Shown: positions 8,997 through 43,521 of the stretch, piece by piece
Layout: each line of letters begins with the position of its first letter
Numbering within the stretch: position 1 is the stretch's first letter
DNA from: an uncultured Chloroflexia bacterium
GTDB lineage: Bacteria > Chloroflexota > Limnocylindria > Limnocylindrales > CSP1-4
NCBI GenBank assembly: GCA_963820735.1
Contig: CAWGBA010000004.1
Span: forward strand, 131,579-195,578
Direction of reading: 5' to 3'
DNA: 64,000 nt
The notes under the pieces: generated by a model
Seen by the model: the letters and a program-made list of their open reading frames with translations, nothing else
Databases searched by the model: none
Told to the model about the DNA's origin: nothing
Made by a program: the position numbers and the translations under genes

Positions 8997-10328
8997 TCAG
9001 ACGCCGGGCACCGACCCTGGTCCAGGGTCGGCCGCCATCTCGGCTGACACGACTGACACGGCGGGAGTGGCTGTCGCCTCGGCTCGTGGGTCCGACGAGT
9101 CAGGCGCTGCACTGACTCGGCGCCACAACAGCACCCGCCCCAGCGCGACGGCACCGATCACGCTCGTGACGCCGGCGATCGCGAACACGACCGGTAGCGA
9201 GACGAAGGACGCGGCAATCCCCGCTGCAGTCGGGCCGATCACCGTCGCGAGTGAGTACGAGGTTGCCGTCAGCACGCCTTGGGCAGTCGCGGCAGTCCCT
9301 CGCGCAGTGTGCCCGGCAACGAACGCCACGCTGCCGACGGTGAGCAGGGCGAACGCGACACCGTGCAGCGCCATGGACGCGGTCACGAGCACGGGATCCT
9401 TGAGCGTGGCAACCAGGAATGCCCGCGCGACCAGGCTCAATGCGCCGATCAGGATGAGCCGCTCGATGCCGACGCGGCGGCTGAGGACCGGGAACAGCAG
9501 CATCAGCGGGACCTCGACACAGGCACCGACGGCCCAGGCGATCCCGATCAGCGTGGCCGGCGCACCGATCTGCTCGAGGTAGATCGAGAGGTAGCTGTTG
9601 ATCGCGTACGACGCGGCCCAGCTGATCAGCACCGCGAGAAGGAACGGCCCGAGCACCGGGTTGCGAACCACCGCACCGATGGCGTCCAGGCTGCGCAGTG
9701 GCGCGCCAACGTGCACCTGCCCACGCGGGCGAAGGGCAAGGCCGATTGCCGCCGTCACCAGCAGCGCCGGCACGAAGACGAGGAAGAGGCTGCCCGGCGA
9801 TGTGCGTTCGATCAGAACTCCCACCCCGATGCTGGCGACGATGAAGGACGCCGAGCCCCACATGCGAATGCGGCCGAATCGAGCGCGATCCTGACCGAAC
9901 GCCTCGACGGCGCGCGCATCGAGGATCGGGCCAATGCCCGACATGCCGAGCCCGAGCGCAACCACGAATACGATCAGCGCCGGCCACCCAACGAGCCACA
10001 CAAACGCGGCCGAGATACCGGCAATCAAGGCAGCGATCGGCAGAATCAGCCGCGAGCGCGGGAATCGGTCTGCCGCAGCACCCCACAGCGGCGACCCGAA
10101 CAGTCCGGCTCCCGCCATGAGCGCACCGAGCAGCGGGATCAGCCGGACATCGACTCCCAGCGAGTCGTAGTAGACGGGGAGGAACGGCGCAGAGGCGCCG
10201 ACGGCGACGAAGAGTGCGATGTAGGCCAGCCGGGCAGTCACGACCGTCCCGTGTGCCGCGGGGCCGGTGTCGACTCCCGCAAGGGTACGGTCAGCCGCTG
10301 CGGCGGCGCTCGTCATCTGTTGGACCAC
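8997..10328 (-). CDS. MFS transporter
   Basis: 443-aa, roughly 12-TM hydrophobic ORF with an MFS-type loop motif (GAAADRFPRSR). Confidence 0.7.
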   Translation of the reverse strand: MVQQMTSAAAAADRTLAGVDTGPAAHGTVVTARLAYIALFVAVGASAPFLPVYYDSLGVDVRLIPLLGALMAGAGLFGSPLWGAAADRFPRSRLILPIAALIAGISAAFVWLVGWPALIVFVVALGLGMSGIGPILDARAVEAFGQDRARFGRIRMWGSASFIVASIGVGVLIERTSPGSLFLVFVPALLVTAAIGLALRPRGQVHVGAPLRSLDAIGAVVRNPVLGPFLLAVLISWAASYAINSYLSIYLEQIGAPATLIGIAWAVGACVEVPLMLLFPVLSRRVGIERLILIGALSLVARAFLVATLKDPVLVTASMALHGVAFALLTVGSVAFVAGHTARGTAATAQGVLTATSYSLATVIGPTAAGIAASFVSLPVVFAIAGVTSVIGAVALGRVLLWRRVSAAPDSSDPRAEATATPAVSVVSAEMAADPGPGSVPGV

Positions 10329-15995: not shown

Positions 15996-16259
15996 GCCGC
16001 GGTTCACGGCGGCCGAGTGGTTGCCATCCTCCCAGGTGTCATCGAGGCTCCATTGATGGCAGATGCGCGCCCAGGGCACGTTAAGCGTGGTTGGGCGATG
16101 CGAGAGCCCGCGCGCGGCGACGGATTTATCCCGAGCCACGCTCGTGACGGTACGAATCCGGAGTGAGCCAGCCCATTCGAGCGCCATGGACGTGGCTTTA
16201 CGTGCCCGTCACGCGCGGATGACCACAACACCGCCTGCCGCCGTTGCAGGTATGGCGAA

Positions 16260-17236
16260 TTGCTCGTCTCATCCGGCGTGAAGCAGCGACGGGGGCTGGT
16301 CACAATTCCTGCTGCGATGCTCGTCGCCGGCTGCTCGCTCATCGCCCCGTTCGTTCAAACGGCGCAGCCTGCCTCGGACACAGTGCCCTGGGTCGCGGCG
16401 ACCGTGATCCCCGAAGTCTCGCCCGCGCGCGCGTCGTTACCGAACAACACCCAGCCCTGCGACGTCTCTCAACTGGGCATCACGGTCGTCACCGGCGCCG
16501 GTGGTGGAACGGTCGAGGGACGGCTCACGCTGACCCTGCCGCAGGACGATCCGTGCACTCTCGCTGGACCGCCACGAACGATCGGCATTCGACTCGAGGA
16601 CGGTGGCCGGGATGTTCCGGTCGAGTACGCCACCCGCTCTCGACCCGGTCCTGGAGACAAGGCGGTCCACCCAAATCCACCGGTGTTGATCGATCTCGCT
16701 TCGCCTGCCGAGGAGCTCTTCATCTGGTCGAACTGGTGCGGCGATCCGGACGCCAAGATCCGGTTCGTCGTTCAAACAACTTCCGGACCCGGCGCGACAA
16801 CCGGCCTCTCGAATGCCACCTACGGCGCGCCGCGGTGCGACCAACCCGGGCTTCCAACGAGGATCACCGGCTACGCGTTCCGGGACTCATCGCGGCAGCC
16901 AGCAATCGATGTCGCGGTCGATGCTCCGCCGACCGCCGTGGCCGGCGAGTTTCTCGACTACACGGTCACACTCACGGACACCGACTCCATTCCTTTGGCC
17001 TTCGATCCGTGTCCCGAATACGCCGAAGTGTTGCTGCAGCCAAGCACCCTAAAACGCATTCAGAGCGATGGCTGCTCAATTGCGCCGACCTGTCCGCGAA
17101 GCTCTGGCCCGGCGAAAGCACGAAACTGGCGATGCGGATCGACGTTCCTGTCGACGCGCCGCTGGGCTCCTACGAGCTCAGCTGGGAATTTGCCGGCGGG
17201 AGGGCGGAGGCAATGGTCGAGGTGGTCTCTGGCTGA
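16260..17236 (+). CDS. Putative lipoprotein of unknown function (apparent frameshift near 17045-17065)
   Basis: Lipobox LVAGC follows a signal peptide. Two similar Cys-containing beta-rich segments. The C-terminal part (SERWLLNCADLSAKLWPGESTKLAMRIDVPVDAPLGSYELSWEF) continues in the frame of ORF 16244..17236. Confidence 0.5.
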
Positions 17237-27155: not shown

Positions 27156-30100
27156 TTGACTTCGACCCCGGCGCGCGGGGCCGAATCGGTTCGTGGGGCG
27201 CCAGTGCGATCCGTTCGCGCCCGCCCCTCCGTGTCCCCGGCACTGATCATCCTACTCGTCGGCGGGCTGGCGCTCCGTTTCGCAATCGCGTACCTGTTCT
27301 TCCCCCAGTCCGGATTCTCGACGGACCTTTCGAGCTACGCCGCGTGGGCAAACACGCTGGCGCAGTACGGACCGGCTGGCTTCTACGCCAACGCCGGATT
27401 TGCCGACTACCCGCCGGGCTATCTCCTGCTGCTGTGGCCCATCGGCCTGATCGCACAGTCCGGCGGCCTCGGGATGGCCACCGAGGATCTGATCAAGATC
27501 CCGCCGATCCTGATCGACGTCGCGGTGGGGTTGGTGCTCTACCTGCTGGTCAAGGGCTGGGCTCGGCCGCGTGGCTGGCGCTGGGCCGAACGAGCCGCGC
27601 TCGCAGCCGCCGCGATCTACCTCTTCAACCCGGTCACCTGGTACGACTCGGCGCTCTGGGGCCAGACCGACGCTGCGGGAGCACTGGTCATCCTGCTCGG
27701 TGTCGCGGCGCTGATTCGGGGCAACACCGAGGGCGCCGCCGCGCTCGCGGTCGTGGCGGCGATGGTGAAGCCGCAGTTCGGCGTGGTGTTGATCCCACTG
27801 GTCGGCGTCGTCCTCCTGAAGCGCCACCTCTTTGACCCGGGCTCCGGCCCGATCCACCGTCCGCTGGTCGGCGGTCGCATCGGTGAATGGCTCGTGTCCA
27901 ACCAGGGCCCGGCTCGCATCGGGACGGCGTTCCTGGTCGCATGGTTCGTGTTCTTCGCGATGGCGATCCCGTTCGGCATGGGGCCGTACGAGTACCTGAC
28001 GTTCGTTTCCAAGACGGCCGGCGGTTACCCGTACCTAACGGTCAACGGCTACAACCTGTGGGCGCTGATCGGTTCCGAGGGCAATGGCTCGCTCGCATCC
28101 GACGGCCTCTGGTCCAAGGACACGATCCCGCTCCTCGGTCCGCTCCCAGGAGTGGTAATCGGCGGCGTGCTGCTGCTTGCAGGCTTCGTCGTCGGGCTGT
28201 GGGCCGCGTTCCGGCGTGACAACCGCCCCACGATCCTGATCGCGGCCGTGGTTCTATCGGCGGCGTTCTTCGTCCTGCCGACCCGCGTCCACGAGCGTTA
28301 CCTCTTCCCGGTGTTTGCGCTGCTCCCGATCCTGGCCGTGTGGAGCGGACGCTGGCGCTGGGCCACGCTGGCGTTCGCGATCGGGTCGTTCATCAACCTC
28401 CACGCGATCCTGACCAACGCCAATCCGCAGTACGGGACGGACAACGTCGCCAACCTGCCGTTCGGCGACCTCTTCCGCACCTTCCCGTTCGTTGGCCTGG
28501 CCGTCGTGCTCCAGACAGGCGCGTTCCTGTTTGCCGTGTGGCAACTGCGCGGCGCACGAGGCGGCCTCGAGCAGCTGGTCGAGACGCCCGCGCAGCGCCA
28601 CGACGGCCTCGCGACCGTTCCTGCCATCGCGCCACCGATTCCAGGACCGGGCTGGCCGGCCCCCGCTGGCAAGGAGTGGGGCGCACCGGCGTTCGCCGCG
28701 GCGCTTCCCCGGCCGGAGGGCGATTCGCTCTACGCCGCTGAAGCCGACGCCGGCGCTGAAGCTGCCGAGCTCAGCGCCACAGAGGAAGCTGCAGCCCTCA
28801 CCGGCCAAGAAGATGACTCGGGAACCGAGTGGGCCGGTTTGGGCACGTGGATCGACGGCAAGCTCGGCACGCTGCGTCCCGTTCGACGCGATCGCAGTGC
28901 CGAGTTGACGGTGGAGCCCGCAGGCCGGTTCGACCGCGTCGACGCATTGATCCTCGTCCTGCTCACGGTCGGCTCGCTGGCCCTCCGCGCATGGCACCTC
29001 GATCAGCCAAAGGACATGTATTTCGACGAGGTCTACCACGCCCGGACGGCGACGGAGTTCCTCCAGGACTGGCGCTACGGGATCGTCCATTCGATCTACG
29101 AATACACGCACCCGCACATCGCCAAGTACGCCATGGCGCTCGGCATCGAGGCGTTCGGGGACAACAAGGTCGTCAGCACCACGCAGCTGGACGGTCCGGT
29201 GTCCGACGCCGCCATCGAAACGCGCTGGAGTCCGGCTGGGCTCCCTGCGGAGCGCGATGGCGACCGCTTGTACGTCGTCAACGGCACGGACCTGCGCGTC
29301 TACGACCTGGCCACACGACAGCTGATCACGACGATCCCGCTGGACAAGCCGGCCACGGCCGTTGCCGTCAACGACGATGGGCACCAGCTTTACATCGCTT
29401 CCGACGACGGAACGATCAGCCAGCTCGACACGACCGACCTCGATGCACTGCGCACCGACCCTTCGGTGAGCGTCGACGCTCCGACGCCGATCCTGACGCT
29501 CACCGGCACGACCGGAGACGTCGTGCAGCTGGTCGTCGTCGACGATCAGCTCGTAGCTCGCACGAGCGACGGCTGGCTGGCAGCGATCGACCCGGCGAAC
29601 GCCGTCCAGACAGGCACCCTGCACGTGCCCGGCGCGGTGAAGGCCGTGCGGGTGCCCGCCACCGACCAGGTCGTGGTCGACCAGACCAAGGTCACCAACC
29701 TCGAGGAAGAAGCCGGCCTGATCGCCACGGCGCTCGCTGACACGCCCTCGAGGATCCGGCCACTGCTCCAGGGCACGAGCACTCGCGTCGGACTCTCCGG
29801 CTACCTCTCGGATACGGATCGGACGGCCATCCAGAAGGACATGGATGCCGGCAAGCTCCCGGGCGTCACGATCGAGTCGGGACCTGTTGTGGCGGTGAGC
29901 GACCCACAGGGCGTTTCGTTCCTGGACGCCGCCAGCCTCGGGTCGCTGAGCCGGATGACGATCGAAGGTGCCAGCGGCATGGCGCTGGTGGACCGCGGCT
30001 TCGACAACCCGGTCCTCTACCTGGCGGCCGACGGCACGGGCGGACCCCAGCTCATCGAAATCAACATCAACGACACCGGCCCGGCGACAGGGCGGACCCT

Positions 30101-32508
30101 GCAGATGCCGGGCCTGGTCCACGACGTCGTGTGGAACGAGCCCGCCAACCTCGTCCACGTCATCGGCCAGACCTCCGATGGAAAGCCGACGATCTACGTG
30201 GTCGAACCGCACGCCGAATCGGTCTACGCCGATGCTCAGCTGCCTTTCACACCACAGATCACCCTGGCGGACACGCAGCGCGACCGCCCGGAGTCGGATC
30301 GCAGCGACCTGCTGGCGCTTTCTCCGGACGGATCGCTGGCCGTCGTGGACATCGGCCAGAACGCCTTCGCGTGGCGCTTCCCGGGCGTGATCATGGGCAC
30401 CGTCATGCTCGTCTGCATCTACCTGCTGGCGCGCTTCCTCTTCCGCCGGCGCAGCGTGGCGCTCTTCGCCGCGGCGCTCGGGTTGGTCGGCGGCATGTTC
30501 TTCGCCAACGCCCGGATCGCCATGAACGACACGTACGTGGCGGGCTTCATGATGGCCGCGCTGACGGTGTTCGTGCCGCTCTACATGGGCCTCTGGCGGC
30601 GCCGCTGGCAGGTCATCCTGGGCCTGTTCGCGGTGGGCATCCTGCTCGGGCTTGCGCTCGCGTCGAAGTGGGTCGGCGCCTATGCGATCGGCGGCATCGC
30701 GTTGCTCGTCCTGCTGCGCTCGGCGCTCGGCCGGATCATCGCTCTGATGGCGATGATCACGCTCACCGCCGTGCTCGGAGCGCTGGCCGTTCGGGCACCG
30801 GATGTGCCCTCGCCGCACGTCGACGTGTTCTTCCTGGGCTTGATGCTCGTACTGACGGTCGCCCTCGCCGTCGCGATGGTTCGGCGTCCGGTGCGCATGA
30901 CGATGGCCGAGCTGCGCTTCGCCGTCTTTGCGCCGGCCGTGGCCGGGATCGTGCTGATCGCAGGGTCGCTCGCATTCGCTTCGCACCTGCCCGACAGCGG
31001 CTTGTTCTCGGCCCGCGCCGTCTCGCTGGCAGGAGCGGCGGCCTTGCTGCTGAGCGCCGGCTCCTATGCGCTGGCCTGGCTCGCGTCGCGTCGCGGTCGC
31101 GGGCCGCTTGCGCGACGCCGCGTCGTGCCGCCCGACGAGCCGATCCCGTCACCGGCGCCGACCGGCTGGCTGCTGCCCGGCCACGCGGGCGGGATCCCCT
31201 GGCTGTACGCCTTCGCGTGCCTGTCGGTCGTGCCGATCGCCGTCTACATCATCAGTTACATCCCCTGGTTCAACCTGGGCAACCAACTGATCGATGGGAT
31301 TCCCGGCCGGCCACACCGGCCAGACGCTGTGGCAGTTGACGCTCTCGATGTACGACTACCACAACAACCTGCGAGCGGGCCACCCGGCGTCTTCGCCCTG
31401 GTGGGCCTGGCTCCTGGATCTCAAACCCGTCTGGTTCTACCAGGAGGGCTTCGCCAACAACACCACGGGGGTCATCTACGACGCGGAGAACCTCGTCATC
31501 GTGTGGCTGGGCATTCCTGCGATGATCTTCACGGCCTGGGCGGCGTGGCGGCGGCGCAGCCTCTCGCTCACGGTCATCGTGGTGATGTTCCTGGCCATGT
31601 GGTTGCCGTGGTCGCGCATCGATCGGGCCACCTTCCAGTACCACGTCTTTACCAGCCTGCCGTTCGTGGTGCTGGCGCTGGCCTACTTCCTGGCCGAGCT
31701 ATGGCACGGGCCATCGCCCGGCGTCTGGCTGTTTGCTCGCTTCTCGGCGGCTGCGGCGATCCTCGGGCCGCCCCTGCTCTGGCTGGGGCGAGCTCCGCTG
31801 TGCATCATCGCCGGCTCTGCCGCGGCCCACACCGCCGAGAATTCCGGGCAGGGGGTCGCCTGCGGCTCGATCACGCGCTCGACCGACGTGAGCCAGGCTG
31901 CGATGGTCTCGGTGGTCATCCTCCTGATCGGCGCGCTGGCGCTCGGCTGGCAGCTCTGGCTTCTCTACCGGGCGGGCGGCCGCACGGAGCCACTGCGAGT
32001 GGCCGGCGTGCGCATCCCGGTTGAGGCTGCTCCGTATCTGACGCTGATCGCGATCATCGCGATGGTGGTGGTCGTGCCGCGGATCTTCAGCGGCGAGCCG
32101 ATGTTCACGCTCACGGTGAGTGCCGACGAACTTGCCTTGATCGGCCTCGTCGTCCTCGCGATACCTGCGTACCTCGTCCTTCGCGCTCGTGACAGCCGGC
32201 GGTTCGCGCTCGGCATCATGACCGCGGCCGTGCTCTGGTTCGTTGCCTGGTACCCGAACCTGTCAGGACTGCCGATGCCCAACTCGATCGCCAACATCTA
32301 CCAGGGCCTGCTGCCCACCTGGAACTACGACTTCTGGTTCGCGGTCAACAAGGACCCTGCCGCCAAGGGCCCATTGGGCGCCCTGGTGCTCGGCATCCTG
32401 ATCGTCACCCTGATCGTCGTGGCCCTCGCCATGATCGTGGCCTACTGGCGGCGGCCCGAACGCCAGGTCGCCCAAGCCGAGGATGAGGTCTCCGCGCCAG
32501 CGTCCTGA
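27156..32508 (+). CDS. Giant (~1780 aa) double GT-C protein: N-terminal DUF2029/PIG-V-like module plus PMT (GT39)-type module carrying a ~400-aa beta-propeller-like insert (apparent frameshift near 31290-31310)
   Basis: ORF 27156..32024 joins ORF 31294..32508. N-terminal module: DLSSYAAWANTLAQYG..ADYPPGYLLLLWP. PMT module: DE motif YFDEVYHARTA (~29019-29042), then ARIAMNDTY, then the PMT C-terminus GQTLWQLTLSMYDYHNNLRAGHPASSPWWAWLLDLKPVWFY. Confidence 0.7.
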
Positions 32509-32536: not shown

Positions 32537-32624
32537 CGCCTGGTGGTTCGGCCCATACCAGGCTTGGGGGTGGGTCTCACCGCGCTGGTCGTTTGGCCCC
32601 GTACCAAGCTCGGGTTGGTCTCAC
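32537..32624. repeat. Tandem 2 x 44-nt repeat at the head of dispersed-repeat copy 1
   Basis: CGCCTGGTGGTTCGGCCCATACCAGGCTTGGGGGTGGGTCTCAC followed directly by CGCGCTGGTCGTTTGGCCCCGTACCAAGCTCGGGTTGGTCTCAC. Confidence 0.8.
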
Positions 32625-32981
32625 CCCCGGATGGTCGCCCTAGGCCGGGATCCTATGTGGTCATTCGTGCACGGGGAGCACGGTAGAACACCGTCTGTCA
32701 CGTCGAGAACGCTCGTCACGATCTGTAGGCCGCTAGTCCACGCTCAGCGATGGTCGATTCGGGTCGTCGCCGACGGTCACCGAGCCTCCGATGGCATGCT
32801 CCACGGGCCACGAGATTGCCCTACGTGCTGCCCACGCGCGTCTGACCACGAGTCATGCCGAGTAGGGCAATGACCGTGCTCGGCAGGCGCAGCTGACAGC
32901 CAGCCCCGCTTCGGAGCGAGCGCTGGCCGACGACGGAGACCGGCCTGCGACCGTACACGGGTTGCCGACCGGACCCGACCA
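32570..32981. repeat. Dispersed noncoding direct repeat, copy 1 (~412 nt)
   Basis: Aligns end to end with 39578..39994 in the same orientation. The first ~115 nt are identical. Lies 31 nt downstream of the PimA-like stop. Confidence 0.9.
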
Positions 32982-33011
32982 CACTGACCGGACCTGACCA
33001 GCGGCAAAGCG

Positions 33012-34223
33012 CTAGACCGGCGAACGGACCTCGTCGGACTCGATCGGGATCGTGTGAGGGTGGGGTGGCTGCGGGATCGGCGCGTGGAAGCCCGACGGCA
33101 GCGCTGCCTGTGCCGCGAGTCGACGGATCACAAAGCCGTAGTAGTCGTCGACCTTGGCGGTGATGCTCTCCCAGCTGAACTGCCGCGCTCGCTCCTTGCC
33201 GGACTCGCCGAAGCGGAGGCGCAACGCCGGGTCACGCAGCAACGTTCCCAGTGCCTTGGCCAGCGCGTCGACGTCCTTGGGCGGAACGAGGAGCGCCTGC
33301 TCGCCGCGTCGAACGACGCCCTTGTATCCGTGAATATCGCTGCACACGATGGCCGTGCCCGCTGCCATCGCCTCGAGCAGCACGATGCCGAACGACTCCT
33401 GGCCGGTCGCGGGCGATGAGTAGATGTCAGCGGTCACGAACGCGCGGTTCTTGTCCAGCTCACTGACGCGACCGAGCAGCTCGACGCCCGTGAGCCGTCG
33501 CGTGGCGATGTAGCGGCGGACCTCCCGCTCCTGCGGGCCGGTTCCGACCACGAGCAGCCGCGCATCGATGCCGTCTCGGCGCACCTGGCGGTAGGCCTTG
33601 AGCAGGTAGGTGAGGCCTTTGCGCGGCTCGAAGCGGCCGACATACAAGATGTTCGGCGTGCCGTCGCGCCAGCGCGCAAACGGCACGACGTTGTCGAAGG
33701 CCCGAAGATCGACGCCGTTGGGGATCACCTTGTAGTCGCCCGGGAAGTACCTCTCGATGAAGTGACGTGCCGCGGCGCTGACGGCGATCCGTCCGTGCAG
33801 CCGGCGCGCAAAGCGTTGGAGCATCCGCTTGCCGAACTCGTACGACGGGCTCCAGCCGGAGTAGGCGTGGAAGGTGGCCACGTTGACGCTCGTCGAGTGG
33901 CGGAGCAGCTGCAGCGACAGGAACGGCACGAACGGCTCGTGAAAGTGCAGCAGGTCGAACTGCTCGTCGACCAGCACGCGTTCGATCAGCTCGCCGTATC
34001 GGTGCGACAGCGTGAGCGTTCCCACCGAGCCGTTGGTCGGCACGCTGATGCCGTATCCCAACCGGATGATGTCGCCCTCACTGGAGCGCTGCGGCCCGTG
34101 GGTGCTGCTGATGATGCGGACATCGTGCCCGCGGGCGACCAGGTTCTCGTACAGGCGCTGGACATGCGCGTTCACGCCGCCCGGAAGCGGGTAGATGTAC
34201 GGCGTGACGAGACCGATCTTCAT
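33012..34223 (-). CDS. GT4 glycosyltransferase, PimA-like phosphatidylinositol mannosyltransferase candidate
   Basis: MKIGLVTPYIYPLPGGVNAHV..., FHEPF, GRFEPRKG, and the E-x7-E region ESFGIVLLEAMAAG. ATGA overlap with the upstream gene. Context includes ino1 and a CDP-alcohol phosphatidyltransferase. Confidence 0.75.
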   Translation of the reverse strand: MKIGLVTPYIYPLPGGVNAHVQRLYENLVARGHDVRIISSTHGPQRSSEGDIIRLGYGISVPTNGSVGTLTLSHRYGELIERVLVDEQFDLLHFHEPFVPFLSLQLLRHSTSVNVATFHAYSGWSPSYEFGKRMLQRFARRLHGRIAVSAAARHFIERYFPGDYKVIPNGVDLRAFDNVVPFARWRDGTPNILYVGRFEPRKGLTYLLKAYRQVRRDGIDARLLVVGTGPQEREVRRYIATRRLTGVELLGRVSELDKNRAFVTADIYSSPATGQESFGIVLLEAMAAGTAIVCSDIHGYKGVVRRGEQALLVPPKDVDALAKALGTLLRDPALRLRFGESGKERARQFSWESITAKVDDYYGFVIRRLAAQAALPSGFHAPIPQPPHPHTIPIESDEVRSPV

Positions 34224-36112
34224 GCGTCGATAGTGCCCGGCTTGGACGAAAGGGGCCGACGCCGGCTGCCGGGATAACCGAGGTCCCGGCCGGTGCCGCG
34301 TCGCAGGAGCGTTCCACCGACATCGTCGCGCAGGGCCCGCGCGTTCTTGCGCGTCTGGTGCCCGAACAGGCGGAACTGCTCGCTCCACGGGTAGGCGCTG
34401 CCTTCGAACGTGGTCTGCCGCTCGGCAATCGCGCGGCGCAAGTCCTCGGTGGTGTGACCCGAGAAGCGCGTGACGACCTGGCCGACGTTGCTGGCGCGGT
34501 GCGCATCACTGCCACCGACCGCGGCGACCCCGCATTCGATGACGAACTCCGGGACGCGTTTCGCCCAGCGCATGGCCGCGGTGGTCGGGTTGAACGCCTC
34601 GATCCCGTCGGGATGAACGCGCGGGTCATCCGCCGCCAGCAGGCGCCTGATCGTCCCTGCCGACGCGCACAGTGGATAGGGCACGAGCGGGTGCGCCACG
34701 ATCGCGATGCCGCCCTGTTCATGGACGCGACGGACCGAGTCGCGCATCGATCCCCACGGGCCGATCCGCTCCTGCATGAAAAGCGCGACCAGGTGGCCGT
34801 TACGAGTCGTGATCTCCTCGCCGACGATCACCTCGATCGGCAGCCCCTTGGCGATCGCCATCGCGCGAGCGGCAACGGCCCCGTCGACACGCTCATGATC
34901 GGTGATGGCGAGCAGTGACAACCCGCGCGCGACCGCCGCGTCGAGGATCGCCTCGACGCCGTCGATGCCGTCGGAGGCCATCGAATGGACGTGCAGGTCC
35001 GCGGATCCCCAGTCATCCATGGGGTTGGGGGTGGCGGCTGCTGCCGGATGCGCGCCTGTCGGCGTCTCTTCCACGTCGTTCATGCGTCGGTGAGCCTTTG
35101 GCGTTGTCGCCTCCGGCCAGATGGGGAAGAACAGCGACCACCATTGGTCCGGTGCCCGACTCACGGTCTCCTCGAGGATGCGCACCTCGTCGGCGATCGC
35201 GGCGGCCACTTTTTCTCGTCGCGATCCGACCTGCGGGACCTGGAGTTGATCGAGGCGGGCCGACCAGCGATCCCAGCCGATGCGAGTCATCGTCACGATG
35301 TAGGTCTCGGCGCCGGTTTCGGCCGCCAGGATCGCGGGCCCGCGGGGAAGGCGTGCCGGCGCACCGAAGAGTGTCACGGCCGCACCTGCACCGCCGATGA
35401 CCCGATCGGCCACCAGCGCGACGCCCTGGCCTGCTGCCAGTCGGGCGGTGAGGTGCTCGGCGACGTCCTCGACTGGGAGAAGTCGCACGCCCAGCTGCTC
35501 GCGGGTGCGTTCGAAGTAGGCGCGAAGAGCCGGGTTGGAAAGTCGCTCCATGGGTCCGGCGATGTCAAGGCTTGCCCTTCGGGCGGCGTAGGCAGCAGCC
35601 AGCTCGACGGAGCCGTAGTGGAATCCGACGTACATCACGCCACGACCGCCAGGAGGCGGGCGGAGGGCTCGCTCGGCGACGTCGGGATTCGCCAGCTCGA
35701 CGCGATCGAGCAGGCCGCCGCGGCGATCAGCTGCCGGTGCGATGGCGCTCTCGGCGTACGTCCGAACCCAGTGCTCGAACGCACTGCGGACGAGGGCGTC
35801 GAGCGCGCGGTCGTCAGTTGCCGCCGTTCGCGCACGTTCGGGGCCGGTTCCGCGACTGGCCAGCTCGACGCAGACTCGGCGCAGGTTGCCGCGCACCAAC
35901 CGGCGCCGTGCAGGCATGGCCGAGTAGCAGATCCGGCCGATCAGGGCGGCCGTTCGCAGCACGAACGATTCGGGAAGTGCCTGGAGCAGGCGAACGCCGC
36001 CAAGGAGCAAGGCGAGCATGACGCGGTCGACCAGCCGCAGCGGCTGCTCATCAGCGTTGCCGGCTGTGGCCGCCGCCGTCATCGAGTGCCGCCCCGGTCG
36101 TTCACCCGGCAT
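34220..36112 (-). CDS. Fusion protein: HtrB/LpxL-family lipid acyltransferase (N-terminal) plus PHP-domain phosphoesterase (C-terminal)
   Basis: The N-terminal ~340 aa resemble the neighbouring acyltransferase (VGFHYGSVELAA...VADRV..GAPARLPRGPA). The C-terminus has DLHVHSMASDG...AITDHE...IVAHP...GGSDAH, the PHP metal-binding histidine pattern. Confidence 0.75.
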   Translation of the reverse strand: MPGERPGRHSMTAAATAGNADEQPLRLVDRVMLALLLGGVRLLQALPESFVLRTAALIGRICYSAMPARRRLVRGNLRRVCVELASRGTGPERARTAATDDRALDALVRSAFEHWVRTYAESAIAPAADRRGGLLDRVELANPDVAERALRPPPGGRGVMYVGFHYGSVELAAAYAARRASLDIAGPMERLSNPALRAYFERTREQLGVRLLPVEDVAEHLTARLAAGQGVALVADRVIGGAGAAVTLFGAPARLPRGPAILAAETGAETYIVTMTRIGWDRWSARLDQLQVPQVGSRREKVAAAIADEVRILEETVSRAPDQWWSLFFPIWPEATTPKAHRRMNDVEETPTGAHPAAAATPNPMDDWGSADLHVHSMASDGIDGVEAILDAAVARGLSLLAITDHERVDGAVAARAMAIAKGLPIEVIVGEEITTRNGHLVALFMQERIGPWGSMRDSVRRVHEQGGIAIVAHPLVPYPLCASAGTIRRLLAADDPRVHPDGIEAFNPTTAAMRWAKRVPEFVIECGVAAVGGSDAHRASNVGQVVTRFSGHTTEDLRRAIAERQTTFEGSAYPWSEQFRLFGHQTRKNARALRDDVGGTLLRRGTGRDLGYPGSRRRPLSSKPGTIDA

Positions 36113-37028
36113 CCATTTCGGCTGCGCGCCGCTCGAGCTCGGCCGCTTCCTCGTCGCTCGTCGGCCACATGGGTTTGAAGGTGAACCACTGCTCGGGCTG
36201 CACGCGAACCATCTGCTCGAGCGCGTCGGCGATCTGCTGCGTCGCGCGCCGGATCTCCGCCTGCGAGCCCTCGGCGACCGTGATCGGATCGAAGTGCGAG
36301 CCGAGGTACGTGCCGTCGGGTCGGCGACGGTTCACCACCGGAACAATCGATGCACCTGTCTTCGCGGCGAGCGTCGCCGGTCCGGCCGGGAGCGTGGTCC
36401 ACTCGCCGAACAGCTTCACGGGCACGTCCGTCGGTCGATAGCCCCAGTCCACCACGAGCCCGAGCACGGCCGGCTGCCGCAGTGCGCGGAAGACGTCGCG
36501 CAGGTTCCTCCAGGGAATGATCTTCACGCCGCGGCGCGCCCGCATTTCCGTGAGCCGTGCGAACAATTCGGGATACTCCGTGTCGTCCGCGAGGCCGTAC
36601 GTCGGGATGCCCCGGAGCGCGCCGGCCGCGGCGAACAGCTCGATGCTGCCGATGTGCCCGGACACGATGATGAGGCCCTTGTCGCGAGCCTCGTGCTCCT
36701 TCCAGAGCTCAACCAACGAGTCGATGCCGTGATCCGGCGCGCCTTGGACGAGCGTCAGCGGCTCGTCGACCGGACGGCTTGGCAGGCGCATGAGTTCCAG
36801 CGCGAACTCGGCGTAGCTCGCGTAGATCTGTCGTGCGAGACGGGCGACTTCCGGGTCGTCAACGCTCGTGCCGAGCACGCGCGCGGCATTCGCCTGGACG
36901 ATGCGGCGTTTCTGCGGCCAGCCGTAGTAGCCCGCCGACGAAGAGCTGGCGAGCGACCGGCGAGCTGACGCGCGGGCTGATGCGGCCGAGCGCGGTCTCG
37001 GCGGCTCGGTAACCGCCGATGACGCCAC
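36102..37028 (-). CDS. HtrB/LpxL-family lipid acyltransferase (PIM acyltransferase PatA-like)
   Basis: SGHIGSIELFA (HX4-type acyltransferase motif region), LVVDWG..VKLFGEWTTLPAGPATLAAKTGA, QWFTFKPMWP. Confidence 0.75.
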   Translation of the reverse strand: MASSAVTEPPRPRSAASARASARRSLASSSSAGYYGWPQKRRIVQANAARVLGTSVDDPEVARLARQIYASYAEFALELMRLPSRPVDEPLTLVQGAPDHGIDSLVELWKEHEARDKGLIIVSGHIGSIELFAAAGALRGIPTYGLADDTEYPELFARLTEMRARRGVKIIPWRNLRDVFRALRQPAVLGLVVDWGYRPTDVPVKLFGEWTTLPAGPATLAAKTGASIVPVVNRRRPDGTYLGSHFDPITVAEGSQAEIRRATQQIADALEQMVRVQPEQWFTFKPMWPTSDEEAAELERRAAEMDAG

Positions 37029-37102
37029 GCTCGCGGGTGCGACGGGCGAGCCGGCGCAAGCCGGCCGATTCGATCCGTCGATGGGGGGAGTAGCGGACGC
37101 CG

Positions 37103-38452
37103 CTATCCGGCGCCCGTGTCTCGTCCGTCATGAACCAGGGAGGAGTCGCGGGCTAATGCGCCGCGGCAGCCTCGGCCTTGCGTGACGACGAGTGCCCGTT
37201 GCCGGCTGTCGCCGACTCGGATGCGGGACGCGCCTCGAGCTCGACCGGGGACGATGCGCCGGGACTTGGCCAAACGCCGCGTCTTCTTGGCACGTGGAGC
37301 CTCGGTGCCGACGAGCGTTTCGTTGTCCTCGCCACGGATGAACGCCTCGACGCGGTTGAACGCGATGTCATCGTGGATCTGGATCGGCGGGCTCTTCATG
37401 AAGTAGCTCGACGGGGCAACGAGTGTGCCCTTGAGGCCGCGGTCCAGGCCCAGCTTGAGGCAGCGGATCGCGTCGGTGATGACGCCTGCCGAGTTGGGCG
37501 AGTCCCAGACCTCGAGCTTCATCTCGACGTTGAGCGGCACGTCACCGTATGTCGTGCCCTCCATGCGGATGTAGCACCACTTGCGGTCGCGCAGCCACGG
37601 CACGTGGTCAGACGGGCCGACGTGGATGTCGTCCGGGTCGAGCTCGTAGTCGAGCATCGAGGTGACGGCGTTGGTCTTGCTGATCTTCTTGGACTCGAGG
37701 CGCTCGCGCTCGAGCATGTTCAGGAAGTCCGTATTGCCACCGAAGTTGAGCTGGTACGTGCGATCGAGGCGAACGCCACGATCCATGAAGAGGCGCGTCA
37801 GCACGCGATGACTGATCGTGGCGCCGACCTGGCTCTTGATGTCATCGCCGATGATCGGCAGGCCTTCCTCGGCGAAGCGGCGCTGCCAGTACGGTTCGCG
37901 GCCGATGAACACCGGGATGGCGTTGATGAAGCCGACGCCCGCCTTGAGCGCCTGCTCCACGTACCACTTGGTGGCCTCCTCGGAGCCGACCGGCAGGTAC
38001 GAGACAACGACGTCGACTTCGCGCTCCTTGAGGATGCCAACGACATCTGCCGTAGGGCCGGGCGCCTTCTCGATCACCTGCGACAGGTACTTGCCCAAAC
38101 CATCGTGGGTCATGCCGCGCTCGACCTTCACGCCGGTGTGCGGGACCTGCTGGAAGACATAGGTGTTGTTGGGCTTGACGTAGATGGCCTCGGAGAGGTC
38201 CTTGCCGACCTTGTTCTTGTCGATGTCGAAGGCGGCAACAAACTCGATGTCACGGATGTGATAGCCGCCCAGGTTGACGTGCATGAGGCCCGGGACGAAG
38301 TCGTCGTCCTTGGCGTCCTCGTAGTAGTAGCGGCCCTGAACCAGGCTGCTGGCGCAGTTGCCCACGCCAACGATCGCCACGCGGATCTTGCCGTCCTTGC
38401 GGCGGGGATGGCGGCCGTTGCCGTTCTGGCTGCCGCTGTCGTTCTTTGCCAT
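37103..38452 (-). CDS. ino1: myo-Inositol-1-phosphate (inositol-3-phosphate) synthase
   Basis: [52 protein letters not shown] and WDSPNSAGV are all conserved MIPS blocks. There is an unusual ~70-aa basic C-terminal extension. Confidence 0.9.
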
Positions 38453-38454
38453 GA

Positions 38455-39117
38455 CTACCGAATCTCCTTTGTGGATTCACGCTCGATGGATTGGTGGCGG
38501 ACCACGACGATCCGCTGTGCGGTGGTGATGACGGCCAGCAGCGCGATCAGCCCCAGGCTGAGGTCGAGCGGCCGCAGGTCCCCCCAGATGCCGGTGATCA
38601 AGAGGCCCAACGTGAGGATCACGATGCGAACCTCCCGGGGCGCCACACCGACGTTGGCCATCCCCGAACCGCCCGTGAAGCCGAGGCTCTCCGCCTTGGC
38701 GCGGGCGTAACTGACCATGAACGCGGCGGCCATCGCCGCTGCTGCGAGGACGGCACCAGTCGTGTCCTGGATCACGGCCAGCCCGTACACGATGCCTACG
38801 TAGATGACTGCCTCACCGGCACGATCGAGCGTGCTGTCGAGGAACGCGCCGAAGATGGACGTCTTGCCAGTCGCTCTCGCGAGCGCGCCATCGAACATGT
38901 CGAAGGCGCCGCCGAAGACCACGAGCAGACCGGCGACGGTCCACCAGCGCGCGCCCGCGGTTCCGGCGGCGACGCAGGCGATCAGAAGTCCGATGACGGT
39001 GAGTGCGTTGGGCGTCAGGCCGACGCGGCCGAAGACACGTGCGAGCGGCTCGACTCGAGCGCGGAACCCGGCGCGTTGCTCTGGGGTCAGCAAGGAACCC
39101 GCCATGGCTGCCTCCAT
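38455..39117 (-). CDS. CDP-alcohol phosphatidyltransferase (PI/PIP synthase PgsA1-like)
   Basis: [27 protein letters not shown] matches D-x2-DG-x2-AR-x8-G-x3-D-x3-D. About 6 TM helices. Start ATG 39117 lies 5 nt after the ArsR stop. Confidence 0.85.
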
Positions 39118-39122
39118 CCCCC

Positions 39123-39455
39123 CTAGCTGGCGAGCCCGAGGAGCCGGCGCTCCTGCTCGCGGAACCGATCCAGGACCTCGCGACTGAGCGTCGAGATCAC
39201 CTCTCGTCCGGAGCGGCGAGTCTCGATCACACCGGCTGCCTTGAGCCGGCGCAGATGCCAGGAGACGAGAGGCTGCGAAAGGTCGACGTGATCGATCAGC
39301 TCGGACACGGTCGCGGGCCCTTCGGAAAGCCGCTGCAGGATTCGAAGCCGGGTCGGATCGGCCAACGCCTTGTGGAAGACGGCCATCTCCCGCAGCTCCT
39401 CTGGGGGTGCGGTCAGGGTGGCAAGCGTCGAACGGATGTGGGCGGGCGTTGGCAC
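39123..39455 (-). CDS. ArsR/SmtB-family transcriptional regulator
   Basis: FHKALADPTRLRILQRL..GPATVSELIDHVDLSQPLVSWHLRRLKAAGV is a winged helix-turn-helix of ArsR type. Confidence 0.85.
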   Translation of the reverse strand: MPTPAHIRSTLATLTAPPEELREMAVFHKALADPTRLRILQRLSEGPATVSELIDHVDLSQPLVSWHLRRLKAAGVIETRRSGREVISTLSREVLDRFREQERRLLGLAS

Positions 39456-39577
39456 GGGTTGAATGCAATCCTCAACGGCGAGTCGCTCGGGGCACGTATC
39501 AACGGCCCTACATATAAGCGCTCGTTGATACTATTCGCCACCCACGCCGCCTGTCAAGGGCGAATCGAACGGTGACC

Positions 39578-39994
39578 GTGGGTCTCACCGCGCTGGTCGT
39601 TTGGCCCCGTACCAAGCTCGGGTTGGTCTCACCCCCGGATGGTCGCCCTAGGCCGGGATCCTATGTGGTCATTCGTGCACGGGGAGCACGGTGAGGACAG
39701 CGTCTGTCACGTCGAGAACGCTCGTCACGATCTGTAGGCCGCTAGTCCACGCTCAGCGATGGTCGATTCGGGTCGTCGCTGACGGTCACCGGGGCCGCCG
39801 AGGTGGCATGCTCCACGGGCCACGAGATTGCCCTACGTGCTGCCCACGCGCGTCTGACCACGAGTGATGCCGAGTAGGGCAATTACCGTGCTCGGCAGGC
39901 GCAGCTGACAGCCAGCCCCGCTTCGGAGCGAGCGCTGGCCGACGACAGGAGACCGGCCTGCGACCGTACACGGGTTGCCGACCGGACCCGACCA
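39578..39994. repeat. Dispersed noncoding direct repeat, copy 2 (~417 nt)
   Basis: Same orientation and near-identical to 32570..32981. Lies 123 nt upstream of the ArsR start, in the divergent region shared with the MFS gene. Confidence 0.9.
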
Positions 39995-40128: not shown

Positions 40129-41787
40129 GTGACCCCGACGCGCCGGCTGGTGCTGCTCCTCGCGCTGTGCGGTGGCGCGCTTCTCGTGGGGGTCGAGCTG
40201 ATGATCACGGCGGTTGCCCTGCCGTCGATCCTCAAGGACCTTGCCGACTGGACGCAGCTCCGGCGGGCGAGCTGGATCGTCAACGCCTACCTGCTGGCCT
40301 ACATCGCGACGATGCCGCTCGCGGGCCGGGCAGCCGATCGCTTCGGCCTGCCGCGGCTGTTCATGCTGGCGCTCGGATCGTTCGCGCTCGGGTCGGTCCT
40401 GTCGGGAGCGTCGCAATCGCTTGACCAGCTGATCATCGCCCGGCTGGTGCAGGGAATCGGCGGCGGGGCGATCGTGCCATTGGCGACAGCCGGTGCGAGC
40501 CAGCTCTACCAGGGCGATGCGCGGTCTCGTGCGCTCGGCTTGGTCGGAGCGTGCACGTTCCTTGGCATGGCACTTGGTCCGTTCCTCGGTGCGACCGTGC
40601 TCGAGGCGATGGACCTGACGGCAGCTTTCGCGGCCGCCGGGCAGACGCACACGCTGGCCGCGGAACTGCTCGTGCCTTCGTGGCGCTGGATCTTCTACTT
40701 CGTCGCACCGCTGGCGGTCGTCTCGCTCCTCTTCGTCTGGGCGGCGGCACCCGACTGGGAGGAGGTCCACACCCCGGGGCGCATCGACGCGCTCGGTGCC
40801 GGCCTGTTCACCGCCACGATCGGCCTCGGACTGCTGACGCTGACCACGCTTGGCCAACCGGCGCCCGATGAGCCGGTCGAGGGGCTCGCGGTGATCCTCG
40901 GGCCGCCGCTCTACGCCGCGCTGACGCTGATCACCGGCGCGCTTGCGCTCCGGCACTTCCGCAGAACGCCGGACCCGTTCATCGACCTCCGGACCTTCCG
41001 CAACCGCGTCTTCTCCAGCGCCGTGGTCGTCAGCCTGCTGACGGGCTACGGGCTCGCTACGGCGATCATCGGCTCGGCGGTCTTCATCGACCGCGTCCGC
41101 TACGAGGGAGCCGACGAGCAGCGGCTGGTGCTGGGATCGCTGGCGTTGGCCACGGCGGTCGGTGCGCTCGTGTCGGGTTTCGTGCTTCGGTATGTCGGCG
41201 TCGTCGCGCTCGGGTTGGTGGGCCTGCTGGCGGCGGCAGCAGGTCTCGCACTGATGGCCACGCTCGCCCCGGAGACACCGATCACCACCCTGGTCGTCGG
41301 CGTCGTCGTCTTCGGCGCGGGATTCGGCTTGACGGTGACGCCTCGCTCGGCGGCCGCGATCGAAGCACTCGGCCAGAGAGCCGTCGGCATGGCGTCGGCA
41401 GGCGTGACCGTCGCGCGGATGGCCGGGATGGCTGTGGGCCTCGCCGTGCTCACCGGGTTTGGCTCCAACCGGATCCAGGCACTGAGCGTCGTGCTGACCG
41501 ACCAGCAGGCGCGCGACGCGGTTCTGCCGCCCGAGCTGCAGGGGAGGCCGCTCGAGGACGGCCTTGTCGTCAACGCGCTCGAGCGTTGGGCGTCCAGCCA
41601 GGCGGCTGGGATTCTCTCCGGTCTGTTCATCGTTGCGGCCGTGGTGATGCTGATTGCCATCGTTCCCACGCTGGCGATGCGTCAACGCGCAATGCAGGCT
41701 GACTCCGGAGGCGGCAGCATCCCCGCGGATGGGGTTGACACCAACGGACGCGACGAAGCCGCGCGAGGGAGCGCAGCCGCGTTCTGA
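40129..41787 (+). CDS. MFS transporter, DHA2 (EmrB/QacA-like, 14-TMS) family
   Basis: 552-aa ORF. LPSILKDL......WIVNAYLLAYIATMPLAGRAADRFG and LIIARLVQGIGGGAIVP are typical DHA2 motifs. Confidence 0.8.
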   Translation: MTPTRRLVLLLALCGGALLVGVELMITAVALPSILKDLADWTQLRRASWIVNAYLLAYIATMPLAGRAADRFGLPRLFMLALGSFALGSVLSGASQSLDQLIIARLVQGIGGGAIVPLATAGASQLYQGDARSRALGLVGACTFLGMALGPFLGATVLEAMDLTAAFAAAGQTHTLAAELLVPSWRWIFYFVAPLAVVSLLFVWAAAPDWEEVHTPGRIDALGAGLFTATIGLGLLTLTTLGQPAPDEPVEGLAVILGPPLYAALTLITGALALRHFRRTPDPFIDLRTFRNRVFSSAVVVSLLTGYGLATAIIGSAVFIDRVRYEGADEQRLVLGSLALATAVGALVSGFVLRYVGVVALGLVGLLAAAAGLALMATLAPETPITTLVVGVVVFGAGFGLTVTPRSAAAIEALGQRAVGMASAGVTVARMAGMAVGLAVLTGFGSNRIQALSVVLTDQQARDAVLPPELQGRPLEDGLVVNALERWASSQAAGILSGLFIVAAVVMLIAIVPTLAMRQRAMQADSGGGSIPADGVDTNGRDEAARGSAAAF

Positions 41788-42092: not shown

Positions 42093-43521
42093 CTATGGAG
42101 TGTCGTAGCAGCCGCGCGGATCGGCGGGGGGATGGGCGGCGGTGTCGTCGGCCGGGAGGACGTCCTGAAGCGTCGCGAGGACCTGGAGCTTCGGGACGGT
42201 GCCGCGAGGGCCCTCGCTGGTCTGAAGGACCAGCTGCTGCGTGCCGGGTGACGCGGTCGCGATCGAGAAGTCGGTCGCGTGGCGCTTCACCTCGCTGATC
42301 GTGTAGACGTAGCGCAGGTCATCGTCGGTGTAGACCTCCACGATCGCGCCGAGCATGTTGGCGCCGTTCTGATCCTCGGACGAGATCAGCAGCGGCAGGA
42401 ACATGCCGTCTCGAGCGTGGGCGTAGAGATAGGTCGTGCCGAGCTGGCCGGGTTGCCCGAACGCGTCGAGGTACAGCGCGACATCGCAGGGCGGATAGCC
42501 ATCAGGGCCCTGTCCGGGAACGCTCACATCGGGTGAGATCACCGGAAGGTCGATGCGCAGCGACGGAATGATCACGCGAGTCGCAACCGATGGGTCGTCT
42601 GCGAATGGCGTCGGCGTCGGCACGACCGGGGTCGGCAGAGGCGTGGGAAATGGCATGGCCGACGGAGTCGGCGTCGGAGTGACTGTCGGCGACGGCGTGG
42701 GCGACGGCGACGAGGTTGGCGACGGACTAGGCGTCGGAGCAGGTGTGGGCGCTGGCGAGGGCGACGGCGACGGCGACGGCGTTGGCGTCGGAGCAGGTGT
42801 GGGCGCTGGCGAGGGCGTTGGAGCAAGCGTGGAGGTGGGCGACGGAGTACGCGACGGAATCAGCGTAGGTGTGGGCGTGGCCGTGGGCGTCGGCGTCGGC
42901 GGGAACGGCGGGAACGACAGCGCAAACGTCGGCGTTGGCGGCGCGGTTGGACTCGGCGTTGGACTGGGGCTCGGACTGGGGCTCGGACTCGGGCTAGGGC
43001 TCGGGCTCGGGCTCGGACTCGGACTTGGACTCGGCGTTGGGCTCGGGCTTGGACTGGGGCTCGGGCTCGGACTGGGACTCGGACTTGGACTCGGCGTCGG
43101 GCTTCGACGGCTCGGATGCGTCGGGCTCGGACTCGGACTCGGACTCGGCGGCTTGGATCGGCTCGGGCTCGGACTCGGACTCGGCGAGGGTGTCGGCGAG
43201 AGGTCGACGGGGAGTCGGCCTGGGTGTGGGCGACGGAGTCGGAGTCGCGATCACCGGCGACGGCGGCGCCCCGCTTGGCGGTAGGGCCGTAGGGTTGTGG
43301 TAGGGAGTCGCTGAGGGTTGTGCCTGCGCTCCCCCGTACGCGGCACCGCCCTCGCTCGTCGCGGCCGGGGAGCCGTACCACAGCAGCCCGGCGGCCAAGA
43401 GCGTCACGCTTGACGCCATCAGCAAGGCCGGGAAGAGGCGGTCAGCCGCGCGAAGAAGGCGCTCGATTGCTCCTCGGCCGGACTTCATGCGGTCCGATCG
43501 TAGCGCGGGAGCCGGGCACAC
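42093..43521 (-). CDS. Membrane-anchored sortase-like protein with long Pro/Ser/Thr (or Ser/Glu/Pro) low-complexity linker; frame change inside the repeat
   Basis: ORF 42994..43521 supplies the N-terminal anchor ([21 protein letters not shown]). By my manual translation, the frame of ORF 42093..42656 stays open upstream through the repeat to at least 43020 (SPSPS../PTPTP..). The C-terminal domain has sortase-like blocks: [27 protein letters not shown], and LVLQTSEGP in place of TLxTC. Confidence 0.5.
42660..43200. repeat. Low-complexity 6-nt-periodic repeat tract (GGCGTC/GGACTC/GGGCTC units)
   Basis: Runs such as ggactcgggctagggctcgggctcgggctcggactcggacttggactcgg. All frames on both strands are open, which generates several spurious ORFs. 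Confidence 0.85.

Follow-up and report, generated by a model that had tools for sequence, protein, structure and literature searches.

We analysed a 64,000-nt stretch of DNA, the window (C4:131579-195578), from the 4.23-Mb assembly in 14 contigs of an uncultured bacterium of the Chloroflexota (genome label G000), in which two direct repeats of about 0.4 kb lie on either side of a six-gene inositol-lipid operon. These repeats, here copy 1 and copy 2, are most probably (about 0.74) the youngest copies of a species-specific, non-coding, modular and palindromic intergenic repeat flanking a native operon. In kind the repeat is similar to doublets of REP (repetitive extragenic palindromic) sequences (REPINs), bacterial interspersed mosaic elements (BIMEs), BOX elements or MITEs (miniature inverted-repeat transposable elements). 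An initial annotation of the window had foremost described the repeats as bracketing the operon as a unit, and had named membership of a genome-wide intergenic repeat family or of a structured RNA family as alternatives.

The two copies around the operon

Alignment of the two copies with MAFFT, with a repeat finder and by global alignment showed the same sequence in the same orientation at both sites with 97.1% identity, far above what is expected by chance. This agrees with the initial annotation, which had also correctly given the first ~115 nt as identical (115 nt in our alignment). Twelve of the 417 alignment columns differ, by six substitutions and six gap columns, and the extra bases are all in copy 2: single nucleotides are inserted at 39693, 39791 and 39947, and two nucleotides at 39802-39803. 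Two of the substitutions and the insertions at 39791 and 39802-39803 lie together in the divergent patch at 32782-32792. The list of differences given earlier was slightly too short for the indels. The end of copy 1 is 30 nt away from the stop codon of the GT4 (PimA-like) gene and the start of copy 2 is 122 nt away from the start of the ArsR gene (39455), and the six-gene module, 6.44 kb in length, is exactly bracketed as had been reported.

No open reading frame (ORF) is common to both copies and all six-frame translations are non-protein-like, in line with the earlier statement that neither copy has a convincing conserved ORF. A small protein gene was rejected because the translations are rich in Arg, Ser and Pro and the frames differ between the copies. 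A template/variable pair of a diversity-generating retroelement was rejected as well, because the copies do not differ specifically at adenines and a reverse transcriptase was not seen. BLAST of the 412-nt repeat against the 4.23-Mb genome gave the two copies and two diverged partial matches (71-76%) on other contigs.

A genome-wide family with a strict grammar

The four matching sequences were aligned, and an nhmmer profile of their conserved core led to further, more diverged members. It was found that they share a building block of ~30 nt, called U here, with three conserved blocks: (C)CTA-ACGTGCT-N6-GCGCG-N2-TGAC(C/A)AC(A)A. A scan with fixed positions detected 15 units without mismatch, 27 with at most one and 50 with at most two; the corresponding counts in the reversed-genome control were 0, 0 and 12. 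A scan with a position weight matrix (PWM) gave 50 units in 18 clusters, of which 17 are elements and one is a singleton.

All 17 elements have the unit order (-)n...(+)m, never the reverse, with the TGACCAC ends facing outward. Each consists of 1-4 minus-strand units, a centre of 36-130 nt and 1-3 plus-strand units. Tandem units are spaced 50-51 nt apart, the innermost inverted pair has a spacing of 70, 121, 133, 143-144, 154 or 165-169 nt, and the spans of the elements fall in classes of ~155, 178, 203, 228 and 250 nt. The centres carry the common short motifs CTGTCA and GTYCACGCTC in one orientation, which gives the elements a polarity. As the units are inverted and face outward around the centre, an element can fold back on itself. 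Most members are ~70% identical to one another, and we infer that most of them are old.

We compared the variable positions of U (N6, N2 and the tails) and found the two arms of the same element to be 0.39 alike, in comparison to 0.45 between elements (permutation p = 0.98). Since the arms of one element are no more alike, the blocks appear to be conserved for their sequence and not for pairing. The three blocks lie about one helical turn apart, a spacing that would suit a protein reading the DNA from one face.

All elements examined are intergenic. Based on gene calls from GC content at third codon positions (GC3), about six lie in convergent gaps, one (copy 2) in a divergent gap and about seven between co-directional genes. 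The neighbouring genes have no common theme and include those for glutamate dehydrogenase, PntB, polyprenyl synthase, a CBS/CorC protein, a PEP-utilising enzyme, YCII, a CoA-binding protein, a GlmU-like protein, an M23 peptidase, ResB, a Rieske protein, a DAO oxidoreductase, DnaA, CysD/CysN, TauE, the nickel superoxide dismutase SodN (Ni-SOD), thioredoxin, ArsR, and response-regulator and GAF proteins. A thiol or oxidative-stress regulon was considered, as the genes for thioredoxin, SodN and CysDN are close to some copies, and was rejected because the remaining neighbours are unrelated. With 17 elements in unrelated contexts across the genome, one more of them in the window itself, the genome-wide intergenic repeat family that the initial annotation had offered as an alternative proved correct, and these further copies count against its headline of repeats that bracket the operon as a unit.

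The operon occupies this locus in relatives without the repeats

The U pattern with up to one mismatch matched 27 times in G000 and 0-1 times in each of 48 congeneric species, which is the level of the backwards-pattern control. An exact 19-base version of U gave five single, chance-level matches in 185,579 species genomes. No U unit was found in 80 metagenome loci encoding the closest relatives of the myo-inositol-1-phosphate synthase (Ino1), which reach 91% amino-acid identity at best, and BLAST of the 412 nt gave no match in 40 relatives. A family confined to one species fits a selfish repeat expansion, whereas such a distribution would not be expected of a regulatory site or an RNA under conservation.

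With an 11.5-kb query across the locus, the order PMT-like gene, GT4 to ArsR genes and MFS gene was found in contigs of many congeners. DNA identity to these congeners was 67-87% for the bracketed DNA and 66-81% for the two genes beside it, and the ranges overlap. The gap between the ArsR and MFS genes is ~150-210 nt in the relatives G022, G043 and G057, as compared to 673 nt in G000. Their gap aligns on both sides of copy 2, with ATCAACG..TATAAGCG..CGTTGATAC and TGTCAAG on one side and GCTGTTATCGTCGG on the other, and has no counterpart of the 417-nt copy 2. Similarly, G022, G043 and G015 have no counterpart of copy 1, and the region between the PMT-like and GT4 genes is several hundred nt shorter there. 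As to the empty sites that the initial annotation had proposed to look for, both copies are absent where compared and the operon is in place. Two other elements, C2_942k and C2_948k, also have empty sites in relatives (2-121 nt in comparison to 510-600 nt in G000).

GC content is 0.675 in the bracket and 0.677 and 0.679 in the 20-kb flanks, and the GC3 values overlap, so the comparison of composition that had also been proposed gave no difference. Because repeat-free relatives keep the gene order and the GC content matches the flanks, the operon is ancestral between the PMT-like and MFS genes, and the repeats arrived later. The earlier suggestion that the repeats mark a past insertion of the operon was not borne out, since relatives carry the operon at this locus without them. 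The repeats are silent on any horizontal origin of the operon, which should be treated as native.

Origin of the pair

The closest pairs in the family are copy 1 and copy 2 (97% identical, 7.0 kb apart, direct), C10_115k and C10_123k (85% over 144 nt, 8 kb apart, direct), and C2_942k and C3_37k (83% over 326 nt, on different contigs). The members of the first two pairs are mutual nearest relatives. Three pairs of elements lie within 8.3 kb of each other (5.7-8.2 kb apart), for which a simulation of 17 random loci gave P(>=3) ~0.013, indicating that copies tend to arise nearby. The third of these pairs, C2_942k and C2_948k, is inverted and brackets ancestral genes. The C10 pair (C10:113500-125500, with the elements at 1566-1719 and 9547-9802 of this interval) brackets 8.8 kb containing fragments of a multi-GAF sensor kinase (GAF/HisKA) in broken frames, a triple-receiver response regulator and a ParA-like ATPase. 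In G022 and G064 this block is absent and the left flank abuts the thioredoxin gene.

In the proposed course of events one copy, probably copy 1, would have been duplicated over ~7 kb into the other flanking gap without target duplication. The left edge of copy 1 has two diverged tandem units of ~43 nt, of which the first is mostly outside the homology between the copies. As this tandem structure runs left beyond the homology border, it suggests copy 1 as the parent and an older local structure as the source from which the copied segment was cut. U would most likely be recognised by a protein, with the unit conserved for sequence rather than for pairing. The bracketing of the operon would then have no designed function and would be a by-product of selfish repeat DNA. 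It could nevertheless have side effects. Recombination between direct repeats of 412 nt with 97% identity is physically possible, and the pair would offer RecA a substrate for deleting or amplifying the operon. Copy 2 adds ~420 nt between the inverted repeat at 39498-39529 and the start of the MFS gene, and may by this distance shift the MFS gene from the control region that it shares with ArsR.

At the 412-nt borders only weak inverted similarity was observed, and the outer parts show partial complementarity to one another. Either this subfamily has a complete mobile unit of ~410 nt, or the pair arose by segmental duplication of a short stretch or by ectopic repair. A mini-element of the Tn7, Mu or Tn402 type was rejected: the ends are TGT...ACA-like, yet there are no target duplications and no partner. 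Close pairs are also hard to reconcile with the target immunity of these families. A tyrosine-recombinase or dif-like core site was rejected because the arms are asymmetric.

Several observations weigh against the pair being young copies of a selfish palindromic repeat. Neither the outermost units of 16 elements nor the 412-nt borders showed a target-site duplication. The homology of the pair overshoots the family core by 87 nt to the left and by 76 nt to the right, in sequence found nowhere else in the genome, and the copying event may have been a segmental duplication rather than a transposition. The nearest relatives are ~75% identical in DNA, which makes the exact insertion borders unreadable. 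No transposase of the Y1 type or REP-associated tyrosine transposase (RAYT; PF01797), and none of the DDE_Tnp_1, TnpB or Mutator type, was found in the assembly, though at 64% completeness (CheckM-type) the absence of a RAYT is not proven. The assembly size reaches the upper end of the genus range and its frames are often broken, and the figure of 64% may understate its completeness. Six rve genes are present, none with a U unit within 8 kb. Lastly, one C-G to G-U double change between the two copies and the polarity of the centre motifs fit an RNA role too.

Alternative explanations

An unlikely explanation is that the U elements are recognition arrays for a lineage-specific DNA-binding enzyme, comparable to a helix-turn-helix (HTH)/PD-(D/E)XK nuclease, which would copy them locally without target duplication and make or mark the borders of relocated blocks such as that on C10. 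If this were true, the inositol-lipid operon would, through the 412-nt pair, be a cassette that can be excised or amplified. G000 has at least seven paralogues of 240-270 aa that combine an XRE HTH with the C-terminal PD-(D/E)XK-like motif GERGSIDxxAW...IExKT. None of these lies within 70 kb of a U cluster, and NucS_C had no match in G000. At C2:1122044-1122190 (-) a 49-aa N-terminus of an XRE HTH protein (HTH_3, 32 bits) runs straight into element C2_1121k, and this remnant and the element form a block of ~375-430 nt that is missing between ResB and glnA in G022 and G064. This remnant is the only link, and the HTH-nuclease protein was not supported as partner of the repeats in G000.

We regard it as quite unlikely that direct pairs of elements are the ends of a larger unit, in the manner of a composite transposon or by Campbell-type recombination, and that the operon can be excised, amplified or moved. 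The clustering of three pairs, two of them direct and mutual nearest relatives, would agree with such a module, as would the C10 pair with its block missing from the locus in two relatives, and 412 nt at 97% identity are ample for RecA recombination. However, the operon and its flanking genes are in ancestral order in repeat-free relatives, divergence and composition are equal inside and outside the bracket, no recombinase or transposase was found in any bracket, and the C2 pair is inverted around ancestral genes. Elements can border lineage-specific blocks, as on C10, which is not the case at the operon locus.

It is very unlikely that each element is a gene for a small RNA or a cis-acting RNA in which left and right units form long-range helices. 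RNAalifold on four copies did predict such helices between left and right units (GTGGTCA with TGACCAC, GAGCACG with CGTGCTC), with a few compensatory pairs, and on the plus strand the 412 nt folded a little better than shuffled sequences (z = -2.1). Together with the polarity of the centres and the double change between the copies this would speak for an RNA. On the other hand, the minus strand did not fold clearly better than shuffles (z = -1.5), there was no covariation between arms, and a single fold cannot accommodate the stepwise changes in centre length and in the number of units. The elements showed no promoter-like or terminator-like sites, and the family is limited to one species. The Rfam search over both copies that had been proposed earlier was empty (no match in Rfam 15 at E <=1), and no match was found for 12 other family loci at E <=0.1. 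The structured RNA family named in the initial annotation was accordingly not supported.

Equally improbable is a host function in which the 50-nt phased units are operators, looping sites or insulators bound by a protein, for example the XRE-HTH/PD-(D/E)XK protein, or promoters of the extracytoplasmic function (ECF) type (TGGTCAT-N16-CGTT). Three blocks about one helical turn apart, conservation independent of pairing and the strict 50-51-nt lattice would suit binding arrays, as would the XRE HTH N-terminus abutting C2_1121k and the HTH-nuclease-fold paralogues in the genome. Yet the neighbouring genes have no common function, the contexts are biased to the 3' ends of genes, the motif is absent from all congeners, and the paralogues are distant from U clusters. 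The ECF-type promoter (cf. TGTCACA-N16-CGTC of ECF41) was rejected, since all units would fire inward into the element centre and the neighbours are unrelated.

Comparison with known repeat systems

The U family is like the REPINs, REP doublets and BIMEs of Pseudomonas and Enterobacteria (PMC3116915, PMC2817692, PMC3733652) in having inverted doublets around a spacer that can fold, tandem higher-order clusters, a strictly intergenic location mostly behind genes, and a lineage-specific distribution. The same bias of contexts is reported for REP-type repeats, and in many REP families the partners of a doublet (heterodimers) are reported to differ from each other, as do the U arms of one element (PMC3733652). 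Inverted doublets with a hairpin-forming spacer, as in REPINs, were found in 17 of 17 elements, and the tandem sub-units vary in number as in BIMEs and BOX elements (1-4 units per side with a period of 50-51 nt). However, unlike REP sequences, imperfect palindromes of 20-40 nt with stems of 8-9 bp, U is non-palindromic, with a 5-bp dyad (CGTGC/GCGCG) around a 7-nt loop, and shows no covariation. It also lacks the GTAG or CGTC 5' tag (consensus ..CCTAACGTGCT..TGACCAC); a GTAG-like tetranucleotide occurs in some U units only, and on the wrong side of the dyad (cf. PMC3733652). In contrast to REPINs, no RAYT gene was found in the assembly, there are 17 elements rather than hundreds, they are larger (150-410 nt), and the units lie on a 50-nt lattice.

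In BOX and Correia elements a variable tandem internal module of ~45-50 nt lies between complementary end modules, and these elements have discrete sizes, form hairpins and are intergenic. Both the BOX elements of Streptococcus pneumoniae and the Correia elements of Neisseria are modular or MITE-like repeats (PMC3049150, PMC10969869). The U family is similarly modular, intergenic, non-coding and hairpin-forming, with size classes. It differs from them in that there is no sequence similarity, no target duplication of the TA type or any other, and no known mobilising insertion sequence, and in that its host is a high-GC member of the Chloroflexota.

As to classical MITEs, neither a target-site duplication nor an autonomous partner with the same ends was found. 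With regard to terminal inverted repeats, the U units are inverted and face outward, but the 412-nt borders lie 76-87 nt further out and have weak inverted similarity. The hallmarks of a composite transposon or a genomic island, namely absence in relatives, deviating composition and mobility genes, were not found at the operon locus. The U family is thus to be classed among interspersed palindromic intergenic repeats in general. By formal tests it is neither a REP-RAYT system, as it has no palindromic unit, tag or RAYT, nor a classical MITE, as it has no target duplication or partner.

For uncultured soil Chloroflexota this adds another lineage-specific palindromic repeat family, with an unusually strict grammar and a tendency to form copies close by. 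Families of this kind are of use as strain markers and are likely hotspots of rearrangement. If a protein that recognises U exists, it would be an entry to a RAYT-independent mobilisation system. In annotation, U elements should be masked rather than called as ORFs or RNAs.

Features of the window and minor observations

The bracketed module is a minus-strand operon of six genes (33012-39455; 6.44 kb), assigned with Pfam. All features are listed below.

Table. Repeat copies, U units, genes and other features (positions in the window unless a contig is named)
Feature	Position	Strand	Size or sequence	Remark
Copy 1	32570-32981		412 nt	In convergent gap between PMT-like and PimA-like genes
Copy 2	39578-39994		417 nt	In divergent gap between ArsR and MFS genes; ~20 nt past genus-conserved TGTCAAG
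Copy 1, left U unit	32654-32687	-	ACCGTGCT-CCCCGT-GCACG-AA-TGACCAC	PWM score 31
Copy 1, right U unit	32819-32852	+	TACGTGCT-GCCCAC-GCGCG-TC-TGACCAC	PWM score 41
Copy 1, second right U unit	32870-32903	+		Degenerate; 51 nt after first; PWM score 16
Copy 2, left U unit	39662-39695	-
Copy 2, right U unit	39831-39864	+
Copy 2, second right U unit	39882-39915	+		Degenerate
Two diverged tandem units	32539-32625	+	~43 nt each	Left edge of copy 1
Third element in the window	16052-16229			~57 nt after dnaA stop
Third element, U unit	16052-16085	-
Third element, U unit	16196-16229	+
PMT-like gene	31294-32508	+		Convergent with GT4 gene
GT4 (PimA-like) glycosyltransferase	33012-34388	-
Acyltransferase-PHP fusion	34220-36112	-
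Lipid-A-type acyltransferase	36102-37028	-
Myo-inositol-1-phosphate synthase (Ino1)	37103-38452	-
CDP-alcohol phosphatidyltransferase	38455 to ~39120	-
ArsR	39123-39455	-
Inverted repeat ATCAACG-N16-CGTTGAT	39498-39529		ATCAACGGCCCTACATATAAGCGCTCGTTGAT	Kept in G022, G043, G057 between ArsR and MFS genes
MFS gene	40129-41787	+		Divergent from ArsR gene
XRE-HTH/PD-(D/E)XK paralogue	C10:42211-43017
XRE-HTH/PD-(D/E)XK paralogue	C5:88359-89114
XRE-HTH/PD-(D/E)XK paralogue	C1:66002-66724
XRE-HTH/PD-(D/E)XK paralogue	C8:122900-123652
XRE-HTH/PD-(D/E)XK paralogue	C2:~218k
XRE-HTH/PD-(D/E)XK paralogue	C2:~441k
XRE-HTH/PD-(D/E)XK paralogue	C10:~16k

The inverted repeat between the ArsR and MFS genes is probably the operator of ArsR with divergent promoters, a putative assignment. 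The PMT-like gene is split into the overlapping frames 27156/29133..32024 and 31294..32508, and relatives align continuously over the overlap. This split (27156-32508) is a probable frameshift, from an assembly error or in a pseudogene. The repeat finder detected dense periodic repeats of 12 and 18 nt at 42646-43276, of the types GGCGTCGGAG and CTCGGACTCGGG, which probably encode a low-complexity region rich in Asp, Ser and Pro or similar. The 1.36-kb gap between dnaA and dnaN, in which the third element of the window lies, also has an unannotated ORF-like stretch at ~16250-17236.

Outside the window, some of the XRE-HTH paralogues have local repeats of their own; on C1 a 15-mer occurs twice at a spacing of 49 nt. 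The same 15-mer flanks on both sides a separate XRE ORF at C13:48890-49726 that lacks the GERGSIDxxAW...IExKT motif. The glnA gene beside C2_1121k appears to be frameshifted. A c-di-AMP riboswitch (RF00379) was detected at C3:12554-12636, ~300 nt from element C3_12k, with 45 bits as compared to a gathering score of 38.

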